From NCBI GenBank assembly GCA_034669905.1, contig JAXMOL010000004.1, forward strand, positions 32,001-96,000: a DNA stretch of 64,000 nt, read 5' to 3'. Every line of letters starts with the position of its first letter. The first letter of the stretch is position 1. The stretch is from Candidatus Hydrogenedentota bacterium (GTDB lineage Bacteria; Hydrogenedentota; Hydrogenedentia; Hydrogenedentales; JAEUWI01). The translations under genes were made by a program, and so were the position numbers. Below the pieces are notes generated by a model. The model was not told the DNA's origin. It saw only the letters and a list, made by a program, of their open reading frames with translations, and searched no databases. Shown piece after piece: positions 19,792 through 35,570 of the stretch.

Positions 19792-20442
19792 TCAGGCGGA
19801 GGGCGCAGCATCTTCTGCACGAAGATCGAAGCCAGAACCATTGTCCAGGGCGGCGACGGCCGTCACCGGATTGGTCCGTTCTGCGAAAACGCCCCCGCCG
19901 AGAATGAAGGCACACGCTTCTTCGGTGTTGGTGGCCGAGTACGCGCCGCCCTGCTCCAGGGTAATCGAGTTTTCTTCGTAGGTGGCGACGTAGAAGAACG
20001 TGCCCGGCTTCATGGGCAATTGACGCACCTCGATACCATCGTGGCGAACCGTCGCAAGCCAGGCGGAATTATCGCGCTTGTCGGCGACCGCACTGACCCG
20101 GGGCGTGTTGTAGTCATCTTTCTCGTAGTCCAATGCCAGGCTGGTCAGGGCAAGTGCGTCACGGACGGGAAGCCCCTGGGCGATTTTTTCGGCAATGGGG
20201 TCCGTCTGAGAACCATTGGTCACCACGGCGACCTGGCCATCGCAGACCACCTGCACGCAATTGTAGGCGATATAGGGATTCTTGTGGATGTCCCCTTCGT
20301 GGCCCGCTTTGGGCACAATGGAAACCTTGGTCTCGGCCGGGACCGCCGTCCGATTGGGAAATGAACGGCTGGAGACGCGGTATACGGCACCGAGTTTACC
20401 TTCGGGCGTCTGAACCACACTGACAATACGACCAATATACAT
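19792..20442 (-). CDS. purO: Archaeal-type IMP cyclohydrolase
   Basis: MYIGR start, YRVSSRSFPNR, NPYIAYNC, TNGSQTD, DYEKDDYNTPR match PurO signatures; adjacent to purB. Confidence 0.88.
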   Translation of the reverse strand: MYIGRIVSVVQTPEGKLGAVYRVSSRSFPNRTAVPAETKVSIVPKAGHEGDIHKNPYIAYNCVQVVCDGQVAVVTNGSQTDPIAEKIAQGLPVRDALALTSLALDYEKDDYNTPRVSAVADKRDNSAWLATVRHDGIEVRQLPMKPGTFFYVATYEENSITLEQGGAYSATNTEEACAFILGGGVFAERTNPVTAVAALDNGSGFDLRAEDAAPSA

Positions 20443-20563
20443 GCAAAGGGCTCCTGGTTGGGGTGTTTTCGGGGAATTGGATGGGAGGTAGTATACCCAA
20501 TTCCACATTCGACACGCTACCCGAAAGCCAAAAGTCGTGGCCCCGCGCGTGGTGGCACGGGGC

Positions 20564-24914: not shown

Positions 24915-25682
24915 TTACAGGGCTGTAATGGTAATGAACGTCACCGGGCCGGACCAATCAAACGCCGCGGGGATATCACCTGCGCCGGTGATGCCAGTGT
25001 GGGCACTGATGGTGCCAACCGGATTGGTGCCCACGCGCTCATTGTCGCCGGGAACGTCATCGTCGGGCTCGTCTCCGGGAATAACCGCGGGCCCAAGAAT
25101 GGAGGCGCCATCATCAATGTTTTCGTCGAGCTCGTCGTTTTCTTCCGTTCCTGCGTCAAAACCCAGTCCAAAATAGAGCAGGGTGCCGCCCGGTGAGGGC
25201 AGGTTAACGCTGTCGACACCCCAGAAGCCGTCGTTGGTGCCGATTAACATGCTGGCCATCGATATGACGTCGCCGGGAACACCGTCGATAGTCACGATCT
25301 GCGTGTCCACGAGGTCGGCGCCGCCATCATCAAAAGGCCCGAAGCGGGGGACCGTCCGCCCCATGGACGGGAAAGGAATGCCCGAATTGACCACATCCGA
25401 TACATTGGCGGCCGCGTTCATTTCAGCCACCAATGTCGCGGGTGAGCCCAGTTCGGCCACTTCCTGAATTCCGGCACTGGCCGCCTCTCCATTGGTCCAG
25501 AAGCTGGTGGAGGCGGCGTGGGTGGCAAGGGCAACGGGCCCAAGGGGCTGGTTGCTGATATTACGGATCGTAATGACGTAACGGGTACTTCCGGGTGCGG
25601 GACAGCCCACGAGTGTGGCGGCGATACCAAGCGCCACGCAACCGGCAAGGGCACTTCGAAACACATTCTGTACGGGGAGCAT
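24915..25682 (-). CDS. Spondin_N domain lipoprotein
   Basis: Lipobox LVGC; QPLGP, ASAGIQEVAELG, SMASMLIGTNDGF, FDAGTE motifs. Confidence 0.78.
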   Translation of the reverse strand: MLPVQNVFRSALAGCVALGIAATLVGCPAPGSTRYVITIRNISNQPLGPVALATHAASTSFWTNGEAASAGIQEVAELGSPATLVAEMNAAANVSDVVNSGIPFPSMGRTVPRFGPFDDGGADLVDTQIVTIDGVPGDVISMASMLIGTNDGFWGVDSVNLPSPGGTLLYFGLGFDAGTEENDELDENIDDGASILGPAVIPGDEPDDDVPGDNERVGTNPVGTISAHTGITGAGDIPAAFDWSGPVTFITITAL

Positions 25683-25765: not shown

Positions 25766-26752
25766 TTACTTCTTTGGTGCCACCGTGTTTACCGGGCTCG
25801 GTGGCGTGGCCCCCTGGAGTACCGCAATAATGTTATCTGCCGCCAGATTGGCCATGGCCGCCCGGGTCTCCAGGGTGGAACTGCCGATATGGGGTAGCAA
25901 CACGATATTCTCCTGCGCGAGTAGGCCCGGATGAACCGTTGGTTCGTCTTCGAAGACATCCAGCCCGGCGGCGAAGATGGTCTTTTCCGTTAATGCGCGC
26001 GCAAGGGCATCTTCATCGACGACCGGTCCACGGGTTGTGTTGACGAATACGGCAGAGGATTTCATCGCGCGGAAGGTATCGCCGTTAAAGAGGTGGTGCG
26101 TTTCGTCAGTCAGGGGGCAATGGGGCGACACGATATCTGACTCAGCGAGGAGGGTGGGGAAATCCACATAGGTCAGGCCCAGGGTCTTTTCTTCCGCAGA
26201 TGAAAGTCGGGTGCGCGAGTGGTAGAGGACCTTCATATTGAAGGCAGCGGCGCGTCGGGCCACCGCTTTTCCGATTCGGCCGAGTCCATAAATGCCGAGC
26301 GTCTTCCCGAATACATCGACGCCGAGCATGAAGGTGGGGGACCAACTGGACCACGCGCCGGAGCGGAGGAAGTGCTCGGATTCCGTGAGTCGGCGGCAAG
26401 TGGCGAGAATCAAGGCGAAGGTAAGGTCGGCCGTGGTTTCCGTTAGTACATCGGGCGTATTGGATACGACAATGTGACGTTCAGTAGCGGCGTCCACGTC
26501 GATGTTGTTATACCCCACCGCCATGTTGGCGACGACACGCAATCCTTCACCCGCCATATCGAAGACTTCGCCATTCATGGATTCCGTTAACATGGACAGG
26601 ATGGCATCGGCCCCGGGGACACGGGCGATCAATTCATCACGCTGGATCGGTCGATCTTCGGGAAAGACGTCGACGCTGTCTTTTCCGAAAGCAGCCTCGA
26701 GCCGCTCAATGGCACTTTCGGGAGGACGACGGGTAATGAAAATCTTGGGCAT
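25766..26752 (-). CDS. D-glycerate dehydrogenase / glyoxylate reductase (D-2-hydroxyacid dehydrogenase)
   Basis: AVGYNNID, NTPDVLTETTAD, GLGRIG, NTTRGPVVDE, DVFEDEP, LPHIGS. Confidence 0.9.
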   Translation of the reverse strand: MPKIFITRRPPESAIERLEAAFGKDSVDVFPEDRPIQRDELIARVPGADAILSMLTESMNGEVFDMAGEGLRVVANMAVGYNNIDVDAATERHIVVSNTPDVLTETTADLTFALILATCRRLTESEHFLRSGAWSSWSPTFMLGVDVFGKTLGIYGLGRIGKAVARRAAAFNMKVLYHSRTRLSSAEEKTLGLTYVDFPTLLAESDIVSPHCPLTDETHHLFNGDTFRAMKSSAVFVNTTRGPVVDEDALARALTEKTIFAAGLDVFEDEPTVHPGLLAQENIVLLPHIGSSTLETRAAMANLAADNIIAVLQGATPPSPVNTVAPKK

Positions 26753-26846
26753 GGAATTCTCCTACTGTCAGGCACGTGTGAGGAATCGTAGAGCGCACAG
26801 GGTGACACAACGAATCGGCGTGGCTCAAGCTATGGCATGGAAAGAC

Positions 26847-27419
26847 TCACGAAGGGTCTTCTTCGAGTTCCAGGAAGGCCTCTACACGGGACACGGCGAG
26901 CGCGGCATCGGATTCCGAGGAAAAGGCGCGTTTGGGAATGATGAAGGCATTGATCCCGCCCATGAAGAGATAGATGGCCTCCGGGGTTTCCGCGATGTCA
27001 GCGACATTTTCCCAATCCAGACGCCCGATCCCCCGGTGGGTTTCGACCGTCATTCCATCGGTCTCCAGCTGTATATCGGTTTCGGTGAACATTCCCTTCT
27101 GCGGCGACATTCTCAAGGCCGCCTGGGCGATGCTGGGCCAGAGGCGGGTAATGCCATACCAATAGCCACCGCCAAGCAGAACCCCGGATATAACCATGTA
27201 GGCCGCGAAGTAGCCCGGGTGAGCGATCCCGAATTTCGGATGATCATACTCCCGCCATACGAAGAGCAGGAAGGCCGCCACACCGATAGCGTAGAGCCGT
27301 CGCATATGCCGACGGCCCGTCATCGTATGGGCGTAAAAATAACGCAGGTATTGCTCGTAATCCGTCCCCGTCAGGGTGAATCGGGCCGTAATTTCGCGCG
27401 CAGGGTCATCTGGAGCCAT
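26847..27419 (-). CDS. YcxB family membrane protein
   Basis: Two TM helices followed by W...ET...IIPKRAF motif. Confidence 0.7.
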   Translation of the reverse strand: MAPDDPAREITARFTLTGTDYEQYLRYFYAHTMTGRRHMRRLYAIGVAAFLLFVWREYDHPKFGIAHPGYFAAYMVISGVLLGGGYWYGITRLWPSIAQAALRMSPQKGMFTETDIQLETDGMTVETHRGIGRLDWENVADIAETPEAIYLFMGGINAFIIPKRAFSSESDAALAVSRVEAFLELEEDPS

Positions 27420-27434
27420 ATCAGTACCTCTATG

Positions 27435-27468
27435 AACAACGCCCCAGAGGGCTCTCCGGGGCGTTGTT
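27435..27468. terminator. Hairpin downstream of gnd
   Basis: AACAACGCCCC / GGGGCGTTGTT perfect 11-bp inverted repeat. Confidence 0.6.
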
Positions 27469-27491
27469 GTTCGCATGAAACTATCGTAACA

Positions 27492-28949
27492 CTATACGTT
27501 ATAGGTCGTCGAAGCCGTATCGCCACCACGTCCCGTCCAATTGGTGTGGAAGAACTCGCCACGGGGCTTGTCCAGGCGCTCATAGGTGTGGGCACCGAAG
27601 TAGTCCCGCTGTCCCTGGAGCAGGTTCGCCGGGAGAACCTCTGCCCGGTAGCTGTCGTAGTAGGAAATGGCGGAGGAAAGACAGGGCATGGGAATGCCGG
27701 CCTTTACCGCTTCGGAGACAACCCACCGAAGTGCCGGCTGGGCTTTGTCCACCGCGTCCTTGAAGTACGGCACCAACAGCAGGTTTACGCAGTTGGGATC
27801 GTTATCAAAGGCCTTCTTGATTTCATCCAGGAACTGGGCCCGGATGATGCAGCCGCCACGCCACATGAGGGCGATATCACCGTAATTGAGGTCCCAGCCG
27901 TTTTCTTTGGCAGCGTACTGGATGAGCTGATAGCCCTGCGCATAGGAGCAGATTTTGGCCATGTAAAGGGCCAGGCGAAGATTCTCCAGGGCCTCGGCCT
28001 TGTCGACGGAGAGTGTCGTGCCTTCGGGACCGGTAAGAATCTTGGAGGCCGCTACGCGCTCGTCTTTCACCGCGGAAAGGCAGCGGGCGAACACGGCTTC
28101 CGCAACGGTGGGTACCGGCGCACCGAGGTCGAGACCGCTGGTGGAGGTCCACTTCCCCGTACCCTTCTGGCCGGCCGTATCCAGGATGACGTCCACCATG
28201 GGCTTTCCGGTCTCATCATCGGTCTTGGCCAGAATCTCCGCCGTGATCTCGATGAGATAGCTGTCCAGTTCGGTCTTGTTCCATTCGGCAAAAACTTCCG
28301 CCTGCTCAGAAGCCGACATGCCCAGGAGGTTTTTCATGACGGAATAGACTTCGCAGATCATCTGCATGTCGCCATACTCGATGCCATTGTGCACCATTTT
28401 CACATAGTGGCCGGCACCGTCGGCGCCGATATACTCGCAGCAGGGGGAGCCGTCAGCCACTTTGGCGGAAATGGATTGGAAGATGTCCTTTACGTGCGTC
28501 CAGGCTTCTTTGGAGCCACCGGGCATGATGGAGGGCCCCATGAGCGCGCCTTCTTCGCCACCGGAGACGCCGGTACCGATAAAGAGTAAGCCCTTTTCTT
28601 CGAGGTACTTTGCACGGCGAATGGTGTCGGGGAAGTAGGTGTTACCCCCGTCAATGATAATATCCCCCTTCTCAAGGTGGGGGATAAGCTGTTCGATAAA
28701 GGCGTCGACCGCATCACCGGCCTTGACCAGCATCATGACGCGGCGCGGCCGTTCCAGGCTGGCGCAGAGCTCTTCGATGCTGTGGCATCCCTTGATGTTC
28801 TTGCCCTTGGCACGCCCCTCTACAAAGGCATCTACTTTGGCTACGGTGCGATTGTACACCGCCACGCCATAACCGTTGCGCTCCATATTGAGCACCAGGT
28901 TTTCGCCCATAACTGCCAGGCCGATCAGGCCGATATTCATTGTATCCAT
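27492..28949 (-). CDS. gndA: 6-phosphogluconate dehydrogenase, decarboxylating (NADP+)
   Basis: [58 protein letters not shown]. Confidence 0.96.
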
Positions 28950-29064
28950 TGGTATCCGATCTCCGGGTTTTCGTCTGGTTGGTGGTTTCCTGTGGGCGCA
29001 CATACAACCGGTGTCGCGGCGCACCACATGCCGTATTGTTGTTCAACCCCGACGTATTGCGTGA

Positions 29065-29283
29065 TTAGCTTGGCTGAAAGCCTGCGGCGCGCTGCCGTTC
29101 TGCGGGGCGCCGAAAGTGGTGGACGATACAGGTCGTCTTGCTTTCCAACTCCAGCGGTGTGACATGCGAGAGCTCCCAACCCTCCTGTCCCATCGCGTTC
29201 AACTGTTCGTCCATCGTGTCATCATGAACGTGACCGTTGAACACGTTGATGGGCAATGTCTTATATTCCCAACCTTGAGGCAT
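29065..29283 (-). CDS. DUF4177-like small protein
   Basis: WEYK..LNAMGQEGWEL..FRRP pattern; GGAG RBS. Confidence 0.7.
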   Translation of the reverse strand: MPQGWEYKTLPINVFNGHVHDDTMDEQLNAMGQEGWELSHVTPLELESKTTCIVHHFRRPAERQRAAGFQPS

Positions 29284-29298
29284 GTGTTTTCTCCCAAT

Positions 29299-30591
29299 CT
29301 ATCCCTGTTCGCGTGCGGCCTGCAACTCATAGGCAGGTAGTTTCTTGTCGGCGAACTTCTTCACAAAACGCGTAAAGCGTTGACGTCCGCCGATGACGGG
29401 TACACTGGGCCAATCCTCGCCGATGAGGGGCGTAGCATAGTCCAGAAATTCATCGGTCACATCGATTTTATTGTCGGCGATCCACTCCGCCGGGAAGGTG
29501 CGCTCTGAGTTGGCGACCTTCTCCAGGGGAACCTTATCATATTCCACATTGTAGATCAGACCCGGTGCGCGGAGGATGGTCGACATCCAGCCGTTCTCCC
29601 CACTGGCTGCGATCTCCGCCGCTTTCTGACCGACACGGTAGGCTTCGTCCAGGTCGACGATGGATGCATACGCGCAGGTATCGCGCTGATCACACCCGGG
29701 AACCTGGCCCCGTGCCGCGCCACGGGCGGCGAGACCTTTGTCATTCAGCAGGTTAACAACCTTCTGGGCTACGGTCAATTTGGAGGCACCAAACTGGGCG
29801 TGTCCGAAGGAGTCTTTTACTTCGCCGAGATCGCCCACATCAAAGCCTTCACTGACGACCACGACACATCGGCCATCGGTCTTCAGTTGGTCATTGATAT
29901 TGTCGCACATTTCTTCGGGGCTCACATCCGATTCGCGCATATAAATCTGGAGGGGCATCTCCCGCTTCGGGTCGGCCAATCGGGCGGCTGCCGGGATATA
30001 GCCAATCTTGCGGCCCATAGCCTGCAACACCAGGACCGGGTCAGCAGGGCAGGAGCCGGCATTTTCTTCGTTCGCATTCTGAACGATGCCCATCCAATAG
30101 CGGGCCACACTGCCGTAACCGGGCGTGTGATCAATGAGCTTGAACTCCGAATCGCCCACATCGTTGTCGATGGTTTTCGGGACGCCCACCGCAATGAGGT
30201 CCAGCCCTTTTTCCTTGGCGAGGAGAGCGACCTTGTTGGCCGTATCCATGGAATCGTTGCCGCCATTGTAGAAGAAGTACCCGATGTCGTGGGCCTTCAT
30301 CACCTCAATAAGCCGATCGAAATCTTCGTTTTGATGATCTTTGAGCTTGTATCGGCAGGTTCCGATCGCGCCCGCCGCGGGCGTGTAGCGGAGCAGGGCT
30401 ACTTCATCTTCACTCTGCGCCGAAAGATTGAGCAACTCTTCTTTGAGCACCCCTTCAATTCCGTGCCAGCCGCCGTATATCGTCCCAAAGGTATCGGGGA
30501 AGGCCTTACAACCGTCGATGACACCGCGTAGCGAGCTGTTGATTACCGGACTGGGACCGCCGGACTGCGCCACGATTACGTTTTTTCCCAT
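29299..30591 (-). CDS. PfkA-family phosphofructokinase, probably pyrophosphate-dependent
   Basis: QSGGPSPVIN, GTCR, GGNDSMDT, PKTIDND, MGR motifs. Confidence 0.88.
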   Translation of the reverse strand: MGKNVIVAQSGGPSPVINSSLRGVIDGCKAFPDTFGTIYGGWHGIEGVLKEELLNLSAQSEDEVALLRYTPAAGAIGTCRYKLKDHQNEDFDRLIEVMKAHDIGYFFYNGGNDSMDTANKVALLAKEKGLDLIAVGVPKTIDNDVGDSEFKLIDHTPGYGSVARYWMGIVQNANEENAGSCPADPVLVLQAMGRKIGYIPAAARLADPKREMPLQIYMRESDVSPEEMCDNINDQLKTDGRCVVVVSEGFDVGDLGEVKDSFGHAQFGASKLTVAQKVVNLLNDKGLAARGAARGQVPGCDQRDTCAYASIVDLDEAYRVGQKAAEIAASGENGWMSTILRAPGLIYNVEYDKVPLEKVANSERTFPAEWIADNKIDVTDEFLDYATPLIGEDWPSVPVIGGRQRFTRFVKKFADKKLPAYELQAAREQG

Positions 30592-30669
30592 GGTCAACTT
30601 CCTTTCCGCTATTTGGCAGACCAGGTGTCTGCCGGAGGCGAAGTGGCCGACACCGCTTCGTCTTCGTTA

Positions 30670-31317
30670 CTACTCTGACTTCACATCTTCCTGCGGTGGG
30701 CCCGTTTCCGAATGGGCGCCCCCGTCGGAAAACCAACGCATCAAAAAGCCTCGGTTCTTATCCAACATACAGGCCTTAACATAGTGGGCTGGCGGATAAT
30801 CTGGAAACTCGGCCAGCACGTGATTGATGGCTTGAACTCCGGCCAGTTTGCCATCACGCAAATATACCGCCACCGCCTCATAAAGACGTAATTCGGGCAC
30901 CAAATCGGCAGAAGACGCCCGCTTGGCTATGCCCGTAAGGGTGCGATCATAGGCCAGATTGGCGGCTTCCCGGTTCCCCAACTGGTCCCATAGTATACCT
31001 TCCAGCAGGTGGGCCTGTACATAGGCGGGCGATCGGGCGCCGAGTTTGGAACAAATCTCCAGCGCCTCTTCAACCCGTCCCGTGCGTCCGAGCAGGGTGG
31101 CGTAGACCCAGGCCGCCTCATCATAGTCGGGGTCCGTATTGCAGGCCGCACCGGCCAGCGACGTAGCCTCTTCGACCTTCCCCGAGGCCAGCTCTAATGC
31201 CGCCCGCTCGAGGAGTCGCAGGGCTTCCTGTTTCGGCACATAGGCGGCGGGCTCGGCGTCTGGATAACAGGCGCCCAGCAGGGGCAGCAGGGCGAAAAGG
31301 ACCCACGGACGCGCCAT
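30670..31317 (-). CDS. TPR-repeat lipoprotein
   Basis: Lipobox LLGAC followed by TPR-like helices; start overlaps the LarA-family stop. Confidence 0.65.
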   Translation of the reverse strand: MARPWVLFALLPLLGACYPDAEPAAYVPKQEALRLLERAALELASGKVEEATSLAGAACNTDPDYDEAAWVYATLLGRTGRVEEALEICSKLGARSPAYVQAHLLEGILWDQLGNREAANLAYDRTLTGIAKRASSADLVPELRLYEAVAVYLRDGKLAGVQAINHVLAEFPDYPPAHYVKACMLDKNRGFLMRWFSDGGAHSETGPPQEDVKSE

Positions 31318-32570
31318 CAGGTCTCCTTAATCCGATAGAGGATTTCTCCCGCATTGTGGACGACAAGGATACCCTCGTCCTCCCGGTTCTCATAGGCGGC
31401 TACATCGATGGTAGTGATGTCCCGGTATCCCAGGTTAATGGAGGTGCAGACTTCTTCCGGAATCGAGGTCGCCAGGGTAACGTTGACCCGGGGGGTCTCC
31501 ACCCCGTCTTCATAGTGCCCCGCACCCTTCACGTGGGTGGAATGTGCCTTGATCGTGCCTGGAATATCTTTGAAGCGTTCGGTCTGTTTGGTGAAGTAAT
31601 CCCGCACGTGGTAGCCGACCTGCTTGATCAATTTGTCGTGGGTTACGCTGACCTCGTGGATGTGGTCTCCGTAGATAATCAGTTCTCCGCCATCGGCCAC
31701 CACCGGCTCCAGTTTGTACATGCACTTGCCTGCCACCCAGATCTCGTCATACATGGGCGGCGCCAGGGCCAGCACCGTGTGGAAGGGCTTATCTTTGTAG
31801 ACGATATGGGTCTCTTTGGAGAGATCGGCCGCGGCGCTCCAAGCGTCCAGCGGTTTCCCGTAAAAGACAGCACGGGTGTCTTTGCGTTTTACCGTGAGAC
31901 AGAAACATCGGGTATCCACGGGTACCAGACTGGCTGCCTTGTTGATCACCGCGCGCACGGGCGTGTCTTTTGTCCCGTTGATACTGTAATTGGTAATCAA
32001 CGCGCCCAGCCAGTGGAACACGTCCAGAATGGCTTCGCCTGCGATGCCGGGAAAGAAATACTTGAAGCCACCGCTGAAACCGACCACCTCGTGGGGAAAA
32101 ACCGGGCCCACAATACAAACGAGATCGTAATCGAGCACCCGCTTATTGATCGTTACGTCCACCGATTCCCGGAGCAAGCCACCAGAGATTTCTTCGATCT
32201 CATCTTCGCTAATCGTGCCTACCGTCGTGAGAGAGTCGGGGTCCTGCCAGGCGTGGTTATATACATCGACAGCGCCATAGGTGGTTTTCCGTTCCTCCGC
32301 AGTGACACCGAGCATGCGGTTGATAGCGTCTTCCGGCATGGGGGGATGGGTGCCCAAGGCGATGAGGTAGTCCATCTTACTGACTCTTTCGCCCAATTCC
32401 TGGTAGAGGGTACGGAAGAGCAGGGGGAGCGGCATGCTTCGGGTCGCATCGGGAATAATAAACAGGACCCGCTTTTCGTCCACATCCATTGCGGCGCAGG
32501 CCTCGGAGAAGACCGCGTGGATCTCGGACTCCGAGAGGAACTCGTTTTCGGCGACTTTTTGGATGAGCAT
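31317..32570 (-). CDS. LarA-family (nickel-pincer-dependent) hydroxyacid racemase/epimerase
   Basis: IPDATR, IALGTHPPM, YNH, PHEVVGFSGGFKYFFPGIAG motifs. Confidence 0.85.
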   Translation of the reverse strand: MLIQKVAENEFLSESEIHAVFSEACAAMDVDEKRVLFIIPDATRSMPLPLLFRTLYQELGERVSKMDYLIALGTHPPMPEDAINRMLGVTAEERKTTYGAVDVYNHAWQDPDSLTTVGTISEDEIEEISGGLLRESVDVTINKRVLDYDLVCIVGPVFPHEVVGFSGGFKYFFPGIAGEAILDVFHWLGALITNYSINGTKDTPVRAVINKAASLVPVDTRCFCLTVKRKDTRAVFYGKPLDAWSAAADLSKETHIVYKDKPFHTVLALAPPMYDEIWVAGKCMYKLEPVVADGGELIIYGDHIHEVSVTHDKLIKQVGYHVRDYFTKQTERFKDIPGTIKAHSTHVKGAGHYEDGVETPRVNVTLATSIPEEVCTSINLGYRDITTIDVAAYENREDEGILVVHNAGEILYRIKET

Positions 32571-32641
32571 AGGAGGATGCCTTTGTGGTGTTGTTTGCGT
32601 TGCGAATCTGGGATACTTCAGGAAATTCCCCGGGCAACGGG

Positions 32642-33775
32642 TCAGTCTATACGAAAACCAATGCCCTTGAGCTGTTCACGGAACGCGGAAGCGCAGTGGG
32701 CACAGGTTACGCGTGTATTGTAAAACTCCCGACGACGGGGGTACGTCTTTCGAAGCATGTCAAAGTAGGCCTTCCGACCTTCTGGCGACTCGTCTGCGAT
32801 GGCGCGCATGCGACCATCATCTTCCCGTATAGGATACAACGTGTCGACCAGGGGTTTGAGTGACGTCGTGTCGGCCGACGGACTCAAGACAGGGTGTTCG
32901 GGCTCCGGTAAGAGCGGGTCCGGATTCCAGGTGGCCGGGATGCCAAGATACTGGCAGGCCGCCTCATAGATTTGCACCGTTCCCTTTACCTTGCCGTCAA
33001 AGGAATACCCGGCGATATGGGGGGAGGCGAGGTCCACGGCCGCGAGTAGTTCCAAGTCCACTTCGGGCTCATATTCCCATACATCCAGCACGGCCCCCTG
33101 GATATGGCCTGACTTCAGCGCCGCAAGGAGCGCGTCATTGTGGACGACCGGACCCCGCGCGGTATTGATAAGGAATGAGCCGGGTTTCAGGGCCTTGAGA
33201 AAGGCCTCGTCCACCAGGTGGCGGGTTGCGTAGGGCCCGTCGTTGGTCAGGGGTACGTGGGTCGTGACGATATCGCAGTTCAGGATTGCTTCTAAGGGGC
33301 GAAATTGTGCGTCACCACTGGCCTCGGCCCGCGGCGGGTCGTTCAGGACGACCTTCATACCCAACGCCGCAGCCTTCTTGGCGACGTTAGAGCCCACATT
33401 GCCAACACCCACGATGCCGATCGACTTGTCCGCGAGTTCGAAGGAATAGGTCTCCGCAAGGTGCAGAAGCGACGCCACCAGGTACTCACCGACACTATTG
33501 GCATTGCAACCCGGCGCACTGGAGAAGCCAATTTGCTTACGCTCCAGGTATTCCCGGTCTATGTGGTCTTCACCGATCGTCGCCGTGGCGACGAAGCGTA
33601 CGGCGGAGTCCCGGAGCAGGGCCTCATTGACTTGGGTAACCGAACGTACCAGCAGCATTTCGGCATCCCGTACGTCCCCGGAAGAAATCTCCCGGCCCGG
33701 CCTCAGGGTGACCTCGCCCAGCCCTGAGAAAGCCTCAGCGACATAGCGAATATTTTCATCGGCAACGATTTTCAT
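32642..33775 (-). CDS. pdxB: Erythronate-4-phosphate dehydrogenase
   Basis: MKIVADENI, LLVRSVT, TATIGEDHID, APGCNA, GVGNVG, DVWEYEP, PHIAGYS, FDMLRKTYPRRRE. Confidence 0.9.
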   Translation of the reverse strand: MKIVADENIRYVAEAFSGLGEVTLRPGREISSGDVRDAEMLLVRSVTQVNEALLRDSAVRFVATATIGEDHIDREYLERKQIGFSSAPGCNANSVGEYLVASLLHLAETYSFELADKSIGIVGVGNVGSNVAKKAAALGMKVVLNDPPRAEASGDAQFRPLEAILNCDIVTTHVPLTNDGPYATRHLVDEAFLKALKPGSFLINTARGPVVHNDALLAALKSGHIQGAVLDVWEYEPEVDLELLAAVDLASPHIAGYSFDGKVKGTVQIYEAACQYLGIPATWNPDPLLPEPEHPVLSPSADTTSLKPLVDTLYPIREDDGRMRAIADESPEGRKAYFDMLRKTYPRRREFYNTRVTCAHCASAFREQLKGIGFRID

Positions 33776-33798
33776 AACGTTCCTAACCGCAATGCGGC

Positions 33799-34686
33799 CT
33801 ATTTCCAGGGGGGCGTGTCCGGGAGGTACTCTTCAAACTCTGCAATGACCGCCGCTTCGTAGGCACCGGCATATTCACCGGCAAAGAATTTGTCCAGCGC
33901 TTCGTCATGAAACCGTTTCCAGGACGCATCCTCGTGCCCGGGATTGATCGGGTAGAAAAGGGCTCCGTTGGCCTCGGCCGCCTTGCGGTCACCCGGTGCA
34001 TCACCGACCATGAGGATACGAGACTTCTCGTAGCGGCCTTCCGAGGCCAGGGCAATGTGTTCGTTTTTCTTGCCCTGTTCCTGACCGGCGATGGTGAAGA
34101 CGTACTTGGCGAGGTCCTGGCCTTCCCATTCTTCACGAAGGGCGCCCGTCGGGGTGGCCGAGCAGACCATCAGGTCGGCATGGGCTCCGGCTTTCTCCAA
34201 GGATTCGCGTACATAGGGGAAGGGGGGGAGCCCTTCGCCGACGATCTCGCCAACGGTCACATTAACCGCCTTGCTCCAGGCCAGGGCCCGGTGCATATCT
34301 TCATGATCGTGTTCCGCGCAGTAGGCTTCCAGGGCAGGATTGCCCAGCTTGGATTCAGTTTCCAGCCACTTGCGAAGATTGGGGATGTCCGGGAGGCGGA
34401 AGCCACGGGCCTGCACTTCCGGGCGCTCGATAAGGAGGTCGAAGGCATCGACCAGCGCGGGGAAGCGGTTAATGCCGCGCCACTTGGAGTAGAGATTGAC
34501 GAACTCAGCGGCTTCCCGGGCGTATTTGGAAACGGCCTGCAGGCCCCAGAATTTGATGATATTGGGGATGAAACACTCTTTGTGCTTCAACTCCATGGTG
34601 TCAAAGGCACAGCCGTCTGAATCGATGCAGATAAGAAATTCGTGACCAGGTTTGTGGTCGCGGAGGGGTTGGGTCGGATCACTCAT
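33799..34686 (-). CDS. HAD-superfamily hydrolase/phosphotransferase
   Basis: Motif I DSDG, motif II CS, motif III K, motif IV GDAPGD. Confidence 0.8.
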   Translation of the reverse strand: MSDPTQPLRDHKPGHEFLICIDSDGCAFDTMELKHKECFIPNIIKFWGLQAVSKYAREAAEFVNLYSKWRGINRFPALVDAFDLLIERPEVQARGFRLPDIPNLRKWLETESKLGNPALEAYCAEHDHEDMHRALAWSKAVNVTVGEIVGEGLPPFPYVRESLEKAGAHADLMVCSATPTGALREEWEGQDLAKYVFTIAGQEQGKKNEHIALASEGRYEKSRILMVGDAPGDRKAAEANGALFYPINPGHEDASWKRFHDEALDKFFAGEYAGAYEAAVIAEFEEYLPDTPPWK

Positions 34687-34739
34687 GGGGAAAACCTTTC
34701 TTCCAGACTGCGCCAGGCGCAGCACACATAATCTTAGGG

Positions 34740-35570
34740 CTAGACGCCCGAAAAGGCAGAGAAACCACCGTCGACAGGAATCATCGTGCCGGTGACAAAT
34801 TTGGAGGCATCGCTGGCAAGCCAGATGGCGGCGCCCTTTAATTCATCCGCATCGCCATAGCGCCCCATGGGGGTGTGGTCGATGATGCTCTTACCCCGCG
34901 CCGTGGGCGCACCGGTCGCTTCGTCGGTCAGGAGAAAACGATTTTGTTCGGTGAGGAAAAAACCGGGAGCAATGGCATTGACGCGGAACTTCGGATTGTA
35001 TTCCTGGGCCATATGTACCGCGAGCCACTGGGTAAAGTTGCTCACGGCGGCTTTCGCCGCGCTATAGCCCGGGATACGGGTAAGGGGCCGAACGGCATTC
35101 ATGGAGGTAATATTAATGACATTGCCACCGTGCTCGTTTTTCAGCATGGCCTTACCAAAAATTTGGGTCGGAATAATGACCCCGCCGGCCAGGTTCAAAT
35201 CCATAATACGGGATATGGCATCATCGGGAATCTGGAAAAAGGACTGTTCCGGGGAGGTCGTCGCCTCCTTCAAGTTACCGCCAACCCCATTTACCAGGAT
35301 GTCGATGTGCTCAAAATCGGCCAGGATGGCGCTTTTACAATCCTCTGTGATGCTCGCACAATGGACATCGAGTGCGTAGGCATGGGCTTCACCGCCTGCG
35401 GCGACAATCTTGTCCGCAACCCGCTTGGCGTTGTCCACATTGCGGCTCGTAACCGCCACCCGTGCGCCGGCCTCTGCGAGACCTTCGGCAATGGCACCAC
35501 CGAGGGTGCCGCCACCACCGGTTATAATTGCGGTTTTACCGGTCAGATCGAAGAGAGGATGAGCTTGCAT
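34740..35570 (-). CDS. SDR oxidoreductase, D-mannonate oxidoreductase (UxuB)-like
   Basis: TGGGGTLG, NGVGGN, SMNA, PLTRIPGYSAAKAAVSNFTQWLA, APGFFLTEQNRFLL, HTPMGR. Confidence 0.8.
   Translation of the reverse strand: MQAHPLFDLTGKTAIITGGGGTLGGAIAEGLAEAGARVAVTSRNVDNAKRVADKIVAAGGEAHAYALDVHCASITEDCKSAILADFEHIDILVNGVGGNLKEATTSPEQSFFQIPDDAISRIMDLNLAGGVIIPTQIFGKAMLKNEHGGNVINITSMNAVRPLTRIPGYSAAKAAVSNFTQWLAVHMAQEYNPKFRVNAIAPGFFLTEQNRFLLTDEATGAPTARGKSIIDHTPMGRYGDADELKGAAIWLASDASKFVTGTMIPVDGGFSAFSGV

Follow-up and report, generated by a model that had tools for sequence, protein, structure and literature searches.

A conserved Hydrogenedentota gene block with a LarA-family epimerase, 6-phosphogluconate dehydrogenase and a phosphofructokinase-like candidate sugar-acid kinase

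Gene content of the locus

The subject of this report is a run of ten genes in the genome of a Candidatus Hydrogenedentota bacterium (assembly GCA_034669905.1, 95.7% complete, our G000 and in the following the source genome), located in a stretch of 64,000 bp of contig JAXMOL010000004.1 (positions 32,001 to 96,000) which is referred to as the window. All ten genes lie on the minus strand, from position 35570 down to 25766, with intergenic gaps of -1 to 118 bp. A prediction made earlier from the sequence alone (the original prediction) had described nine of them as a co-oriented, tightly packed cluster and had read it as a route by which hexuronates enter the pentose phosphate pathway via epimerisation at carbon 2 instead of via dehydration. 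The nine genes are indeed all found in that order and orientation, but a tenth one between gnd and the last dehydrogenase gene, coding for a YcxB-like membrane protein (26847..27419, PF14317) and regarded here as a passenger, had been overlooked. A promoter/terminator scan of the block stayed at chance level (5 vs 4.7 and 14 vs 10.1).

Six of the genes are of main concern. The most upstream one codes for a short-chain dehydrogenase/reductase (SDR) of the D-mannonate/fructuronate oxidoreductase type (UxuB/UxaD-like, 276 aa, 34740..35570; NCBIfam PRK08277, 344 bits, cut-off 281), whose residues Ser156, Tyr169 and Lys173 do not vary in any of 88 aligned homologs and which carries Ser42-Arg43 at a site where 70 of these homologs have an aspartate. 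Such an exchange usually indicates NADP(H) preference, which would balance the NADP-dependent Gnd. Next come a capped protein of the haloacid dehalogenase (HAD) superfamily, which belongs to an unnamed family and is predicted from its motifs and a structure model to be a phosphatase or phosphotransferase (295 aa, 33799..34686), the 4-phosphoerythronate dehydrogenase PdxB (377 aa, 32642..33775; PRK00257, 438.8 bits, cut-off 434), and a putative hexonate 2-epimerase of the LarA superfamily (Pfam Lar_N), assigned to group 19 (GntE1-like) by its signature residues (417 aa, 31317..32570). Further downstream lie the gene for a pyrophosphate-type member of the phosphofructokinase (PFK) family, which forms a discrete subfamily and is a candidate sugar-acid kinase (430 aa, 29299..30591; PRK14072, 369 bits, cut-off 273), and gnd, coding for the decarboxylating, NADP-dependent 6-phosphogluconate dehydrogenase (27492..28949; TIGR00873, 761 bits, cut-off 427), for which the source genome has one match only, the sole copy found.

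Conservation of the block

Altogether 56 genomes were examined, namely 41 related genomes and 15 outside genomes which were reached via records from outside the Hydrogenedentota and for which completeness figures are not given. Among the best 80 of 516 genome loci anchored on LarA, most of which are kin, pdxB was found in 60, PFK in 53, HAD in 48, SDR in 44 and gnd in 36, and these counts are lower bounds because many of the contigs are short. Such co-occurrence is not expected by chance and defines a core comprising the SDR, HAD, pdxB, larA, pfk and gnd genes; the SDR-HAD-LarA neighbourhood, for which the original prediction had asked for a co-occurrence analysis, is part of it. LarA homologs of at least 55% identity are encoded in 38 of the 41 related genomes and a PFK of this subfamily in 37 of them, while the HAD gene is present in 23 of the 26 relatives (of 40) in which it was tested. 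In three genomes of one family (G016, G027 and G034) LarA, HAD and PFK are all missing together, and in G040, where larA reaches the end of the contig, PFK is the only one of the three that is missing.

By taking instead the best 80 of 296 metagenome loci anchored on PFK, which have no taxon labels, HAD was found in 56, SDR in 55, LarA in 52 (27 resembling the LarA of the window and 25 belonging to group 18) and gnd in 42. In these 80 loci uxaC or uxaE occurs 25 times, kduI 13 times and uxuA three times, and there is no GntK, no kinase of the FGGY family and no KdgK-like kinase. Where the flanks are long enough, the HAD gene is present in 56 of 57 loci, 23 of the 24 loci without it being cut off too early for a verdict. 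It begins 17-288 bp after pfk in 39 loci, and the 38 full-length PFKs of these 39 loci make up 18 clusters when grouped at 85% identity, the largest holding 20. At least five gene orders exist which differ by lineage, with SDR-HAD-pdxB-larA-pfk-gnd in the source genome and uxaC-SDR-pfk-HAD-larA-gnd, pfk-HAD-gnd-SDR-larA, TRAP-SDR-gnd-larA-pfk-HAD or pfk-HAD-gnd alone elsewhere. Of four planctomycete genomes, two have pfk-HAD-gnd alone and the other two only pfk-HAD. A Gfo/Idh/MocA oxidoreductase gene (e.g. L196:4011-5000) lies between larA and gnd in 13 of the 80 PFK-anchored loci, and blocks like those of Hydrogenedentota also turn up in records labelled archaeon or Nitrospirales (L095, L051, L062, L064) that are probably misbinned or mislabelled.

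The remaining genes of the run recur less often in the LarA-anchored loci. A TPR lipoprotein-like protein (215 aa, 30670..31317, TPR_19; 16 of 80) and a small DUF4177 protein (72 aa, 29065..29283; PF13783, 25.2 bits, cut-off 25; 8 of 80) are variable passengers, the YcxB-like gene occurs in five loci, and the glyoxylate-reductase-like D-2-hydroxyacid dehydrogenase at the end of the run (328 aa, 25766..26752; best match PRK13243 with 379.5 bits, below the cut-off of 455; 14 of 80) is loosely linked. Immediately downstream of the block there is a gene for a Spondin-domain protein (24915-25682), and elsewhere in the window an IMP cyclohydrolase-like gene (Pfam IMP_cyclohyd, 19792-20508) adjoins an adenylosuccinate lyase gene.

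The LarA-family epimerase and its cofactor

The catalytic residues D41, H75, H160 and K282 of the LarA protein and its cofactor-binding residues R44, K170 and H186, as these are named in the available part of PMC7583248, are all unchanged in every one of 92 close homologs. A signature comprising the loop E161-V162, W278 of helix 11, and A342 together with S344-T345-H346 of helix 14 agrees with the LarAH19/GntE1 rows in the accessible part of Dataset S2 of the same paper, as judged by eye. The best solved relative is GntE2 of Thermotoga maritima (PDB 4NAR, E 7e-63); however, the orthology with GntE2 hinted at by this match was rejected, since group 20 has a Glu-Ser loop and Val-Ile-Asn in helix 14 where group 19 has the polar Ser-Thr-His and an Arg/Lys patch. 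Membership in group 18 (NF052594; 189 bits, far under the cut-off of 500) and a role as lactate or malate racemase (79-91 bits vs cut-offs of 460-500, with the signature being that of group 19) were likewise rejected. An enzyme of the hexonate-epimerase type, group 19, is supported by these sequence features, in agreement with the LarA-family epimerase proposed in the original prediction. As far as the text of PMC7583248 is available, both GntE1 (group 19) and GntE2 (group 20) epimerise free mannonate. The genes larB and larC are neighbours on another contig of the source genome, which also encodes larE, all of them scoring over the cut-off, so that the search for larBCE suggested in the original prediction recovers the complete set. 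A second LarA-family gene of the source genome that is nearest to LarAH10 but under its cut-off was seen at L213:6594-7964 beside genes for fatty-acid synthesis.

Relation to known sugar-acid pathways

The passage of mannonate through a LarA-family epimerase to Gnd is itself a known route. According to the available part of PMC6978723, the sequence fructuronate to mannonate to gluconate to 6-phosphogluconate goes back to a 2012 proposal for T. maritima, and the activity of GntE, which probably lets mannonate into the pentose phosphate pathway, was shown in 2020 (PMC7583248, accessible in part); the route that had been deduced for the window is therefore a rediscovery. A further GntE is described in PMC11770544, as far as its text goes. 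What is variant in the block is the presence of PFK and HAD in the slot of the gluconate kinase.

Like the block, the UxaR operon of T. maritima (aldH-pelB-gnd-uxaRED-gntEK; PMC3750489, available in part) brings together an SDR-type mannonate oxidoreductase, a LarA-family epimerase and Gnd and has been proposed to serve entry into the pentose phosphate pathway. However, the operon of T. maritima also includes uxaE and gntK, and its genome encodes uxuA, whereas uxaE, uxaC, uxuA and gntK were not found in the source genome; the block holds PFK, HAD and pdxB instead, and its epimerase is of group 19 and not of group 20. GntE1 (LarAH19) of Corynebacterium glutamicum has in common with the LarA of the block all residues for catalysis and cofactor binding, Glu-Val in the loop and Ser-Thr-His in helix 14, and in the accessible portion of Table S1 of PMC7583248 its neighbours are uxaC, a LacI regulator, an SDR and lar genes, while no PFK or HAD is listed there beside groups 18-20. 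In Lactobacillus suebicus, the available text of PMC6978723 reports a conversion of mannonate to 6-phosphogluconate that resembles the block in proceeding without a dehydratase, with mannonate kinase and 6-phosphomannonate epimerase activities measured in extracts and left unassigned to genes; the kinase activity is ATP-dependent, gluconate-kinase homologs were proposed for it, and no PFK-family candidate is named. A literature search covering mostly journals that are not behind a subscription yielded only PMC6978723 and PMC5673643 for a fructuronate or mannonate kinase and, with most subscription journals outside its scope, nothing on a pyrophosphate-dependent gluconate kinase, a PRK14072 sugar-acid kinase, or a PFK together with hexuronate and LarA.

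The kinase slot

That this slot is normally filled by a kinase follows from three cases: a record from Saccharobesus has GntK joined to a group-18 LarA in one protein, next to larB, uxaE and gnd (L223:5509-7278, annotated as gluconokinase only), in a Catenovulum record GntK adjoins a group-18 LarA beside uxaC, and in T. maritima gntE is followed by gntK. By contrast, no GntK or IdnK was found in the source genome or in any of the 26 Hydrogenedentota tested. Six of the seven FGGY matches in the source genome were classified, as GlpK, XylB, rhamnulokinase-like, ribulokinase and two without class, none being near the gntK cut-off, and G026 has four FGGY kinases, likewise GlpK, XylB, rhamnulokinase-like and ribulokinase. 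The kinase step had been overlooked in the original prediction, and with no GntK found, the PFK-like and HAD genes become the candidates for it.

Among the 15 outside genomes, eight have a PFK of this subfamily, seven of these also the HAD gene and none of them GntK, whereas two have GntK and lack both PFK and HAD. In one of the eight, the probably misbinned G055, the label is archaeal and the block like those of Hydrogenedentota.

The PFK subfamily is well set off from its relatives. There are 97 sequences with at least 63% identity, two with 51% and one with 47%, other PRK14072-like proteins mostly reaching 30-42%, and a FastTree clade of 103 tips (support 0.89) unites all 99 members with four more distant sequences. 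D113 and K139, which we take to be the mark of pyrophosphate use, are present in 99 of 99 members. The residues D142, D144, M192-G-R194, E248, R294 and R303 are kept as well (D127, D129, M169-G-R171, E222, R243 and R252 in the Bacillus PFK); presumably these bind the fructose ring, R294 and R303 being the arginines of the phosphate site. Peculiar to the subfamily are an insertion after D144 and the near-invariant Q190, K195, T/C300 and D301 beside the acceptor site. The positions equivalent to R162 and H249 of the Bacillus enzyme are changed too, but since they also vary among ordinary PRK14072 proteins the acceptor cannot be read off the sequence. The PFK of the block thus resembles the PRK14072 PFKs (PDB 3K2Q, 3HNO) in fold family, pyrophosphate signature and fructose-ring residues, and differs from them in its separate clade, its insertion, its residues at positions 190, 195, 300 and 301, the ordinary paralog alongside it and its occurrence in sugar-acid operons. 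This ordinary PRK14072 PFK (32% identity) is found in the source genome and in nearly all relatives. Two apparent PFK-HAD fusions (P0318, P0322) were set aside, as they look like frameshift artefacts.

The HAD protein and PdxB

All 40 aligned homologs of the HAD protein keep its motifs D22-x-D24, S176, K207 and G228-D229-x3-D233 unchanged. The protein of the window matches no Pfam or NCBIfam family and no PDB sequence, and its homologs match Pfam HAD_2. Its model (pLDDT 94.6) shows a Rossmannoid HAD fold with a C1 cap, the nearest folds being the phosphatase domain of MtlD and beta-phosphoglucomutase (12-16% identity, TM about 0.5). A HAD-Gnd fusion of 803 aa occurs in four records; its cluster also contains split forms, so that it may stem from read-through and is weak evidence. 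Fusions of the unnamed family (P0272, P0275-P0302, P0306-P0321) join it to Gnd, to a second, Cof-type HAD and, in more distant forms, to glycosidases of families GH1, GH2, GH3 and GH88 and to a sulfatase.

PdxB was considered as a required enzyme of the pathway, a view weakened by its distribution: G027 and G034 retain it but lack the other genes of the block, and no pdxB was found in G042, G043, G046, G048, G051 and G053, all of which have PFK and HAD. Given this pattern and the presence of pdxJ in the source genome and in 34 of 36 genomes tested, PdxB is likely a vitamin B6 gene belonging to synthesis dependent on 1-deoxy-D-xylulose 5-phosphate (DXP). By analogy it may possibly also remove an inhibitor of Gnd, for in Bacillus subtilis GndA is inhibited by 4-phosphoerythronate, and the toxicity is brought on by gluconate and eased when PdxB is expressed (PMC12445079, as far as available). 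A clearing of 4-phosphoerythronate by the HAD protein, as by PdxB in B. subtilis, would be a similar analogy.

The entry substrate

Neither a Pfam search of the source genome for UxuA, UxaC and UxaE nor a tblastn search of it with homologs from related operons for UxaC, UxaE, UxuA, KduI, KdgK, ExuT, GH88/105, DctP and DctM gave a match. The 41 related genomes have uxaC in seven cases and uxaE and uxuA in none, so that the block persists nearly throughout the order although no means of producing fructuronate is recognisable; homologous operons elsewhere sit beside uxaC or uxaE. The bypass of dehydration asserted in the original prediction agrees with this general lack of uxuA, and the absence of uxuA and kdgK which it had noted for the window extends to the whole source genome, just as the genome searches it had called for turned up no uxaC, uxuA or gntK. 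It had also noted that the window lacks kdgA, which is correct, but two Eda-family aldolases are encoded elsewhere in the genome. The genome also has zwf and pgl. That Hydrogenedentota retain the block almost universally, with no known uronate isomerase, suggests that an entry enzyme is still missing from the picture. A gene for a xylose-isomerase-like TIM-barrel protein following gnd in 8 of the 80 LarA-anchored and 2 of the 80 PFK-anchored loci (L063:13091-13999, L048, L060, L152, L170) is a possible candidate for the missing isomerase; the source genome has a weak, partial match to it only (29%).

Proposed route and alternative explanations

The reading preferred here, to which as a whole a probability of roughly 0.42 is assigned, is that the block converts a six-carbon sugar acid to ribulose-5-phosphate. 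The SDR would reduce fructuronate to D-mannonate, LarA with its nickel cofactor would flip carbon 2 to yield D-gluconate, the PFK-family enzyme would take the part of a gluconate kinase and use pyrophosphate to phosphorylate gluconate, and Gnd would decarboxylate the resulting 6-phosphogluconate to ribulose-5-phosphate. The HAD protein would act as a proofreading phosphatase on off-pathway phosphorylated acids such as 4-phosphoerythronate, which PdxB would take for vitamin B6. This reading builds on the gene identities, the intact motifs, the synteny, the joint absences and the lack of any recognisable GntK, UxuA, UxaC or UxaE, all of which are observed. The passage from LarA to Gnd is its most secure part and highly probable. 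The PFK-like enzyme is probably a sugar-acid kinase, which we infer as we do every substrate assignment at this locus, and gluconate as its acceptor is put forward only tentatively. Gluconate is slightly ahead for two reasons, namely that the same epimerase groups are found with GntK in some cases and with PFK-HAD in others, and that pfk-HAD also occurs with gnd alone, but on stereochemistry fructuronate or mannonate is a close rival. Of the hexuronate route originally predicted, the epimerase type, its cofactor genes and the absence of uxuA are supported, whereas hexuronate entry is not supported for the source genome.

Several observations speak against this interpretation. For hexuronate entry, which the original prediction had assumed, the source genome offers no uxaC, uxaE, kduI, ExuT or DctP/DctM homolog, and with zwf and pgl present Gnd has another source of its substrate. 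The fructose-ring and phosphate-site residues kept in the PFK would suit a cyclic ketose better than linear gluconate, and GntE1 acts poorly on mannonate, with a KM of 120 mM, and its authors suspect another native substrate (PMC7583248, in its available part). A hidden kinase is possible, since two FGGY and several PfkB proteins of the source genome fit no class. Five of the 15 outside genomes have LarA but neither GntK nor this PFK nor the HAD gene; one of them carries two PfkB kinase genes after uxaE-SDR-gnd-larA (L104:9473-11723), a third way of filling the kinase slot. The complementarity of GntK and PFK rests on the two GntK-bearing genomes, both labelled Verrucomicrobiota, G041 has PFK without HAD, and the joint absences in G016, G027 and G034 are perhaps a single event, as all three belong to one family.

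The order of the steps might also be reversed, with PFK acting on fructuronate or mannonate, the SDR yielding 6-phosphomannonate and LarA serving as a 6-phosphomannonate 2-epimerase. Fructuronate has the configuration of fructose and is a close mimic of fructose-6-phosphate, in keeping with the fructose-ring residues of the PFK, and the order SDR-pfk-HAD-larA-gnd is common. Group 19 is poor on free mannonate and has its polar Ser-Thr-His and Arg/Lys patch, and both activities demanded by this scheme were measured in L. suebicus (PMC6978723, available in part). However, the same LarA signature is found in genomes with GntK (L113, 55% identical), group-18 LarAs are accompanied by GntK in some cases and by PFK-HAD in others, uxuA follows the same SDR in three loci although UxuA needs free mannonate, and planctomycete pfk-HAD-gnd units have no linked SDR or LarA, so that this order is considered unlikely. 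Also rather improbable is an ordinary pyrophosphate-dependent PFK acting on fructose-6-phosphate and sedoheptulose-7-phosphate in place of transaldolase, with HAD repairing side products and an unlinked PfkB or FGGY protein as the sugar-acid kinase. Transaldolase was not found in the source genome and is present in only 6 of 26 Hydrogenedentota, the fructose-6-phosphate site is largely kept, and kinases without class exist in the genome. The rarity of transaldolase suggests a sedoheptulose-bisphosphate bypass through the ordinary PFK. Against the substitute role, nearly all relatives possess that ordinary PFK, neither transaldolase nor this PFK is present in G016, G027 and G034 while G041, G042 and G043 have both, a distribution that weakens the PFK as a transaldolase substitute, and the subfamily has its own insertion and residues beside the acceptor site.

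In a two-enzyme relay, PFK would make fructose-1,6-bisphosphate with pyrophosphate and the HAD aspartate would pass its phosphate to gluconate, the pair serving as gluconate kinase. The near-obligate pairing of the two (56 of 57 loci), a fold near beta-phosphoglucomutase and the HAD-Gnd fusion would fit such a relay, yet G041 has PFK without HAD, the ordinary PFK could already make the bisphosphate, the fusion may be read-through and the likeness in fold is generic, and we give the relay little credence. Hardly credible is a housekeeping salvage in Hydrogenedentota that would recycle mannonate or phosphomannonate side products and protect Gnd, with no catabolism of uronates. It would account for LarA in 38 of 41 genomes against uxaC in seven and uxaE in none, for the lack of a transporter or regulator among the recurrent neighbours in Hydrogenedentota and for the embedded PdxB; against it, the same core occurs in clear uronate operons elsewhere, and the gene after gnd leaves room for an unrecognised isomerase.

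Implications

Should the PFK-like enzyme be a sugar-acid kinase, a widespread clade labelled phosphofructokinase would be misannotated, and genomes without uxuA and gntK would have a complete, ATP-saving route for uronates. In the boldest version, which is doubtful as a whole, the subfamily would be the first pyrophosphate-dependent sugar-acid kinase of phosphofructokinase fold, acting on fructuronate or mannonate, and LarA a 6-phosphomannonate 2-epimerase, together forming an ATP-free and dehydratase-free route to ribulose-5-phosphate that brings along a proofreading phosphatase and is fed, in Hydrogenedentota, by an unrecognised entry step. With the PFK-like enzyme as a sugar-acid kinase, the block would also supply gene candidates for mannonate kinase as well as 6-phosphomannonate epimerase activities that have been measured but never assigned, and could explain the weak activity of GntE1 on free mannonate.

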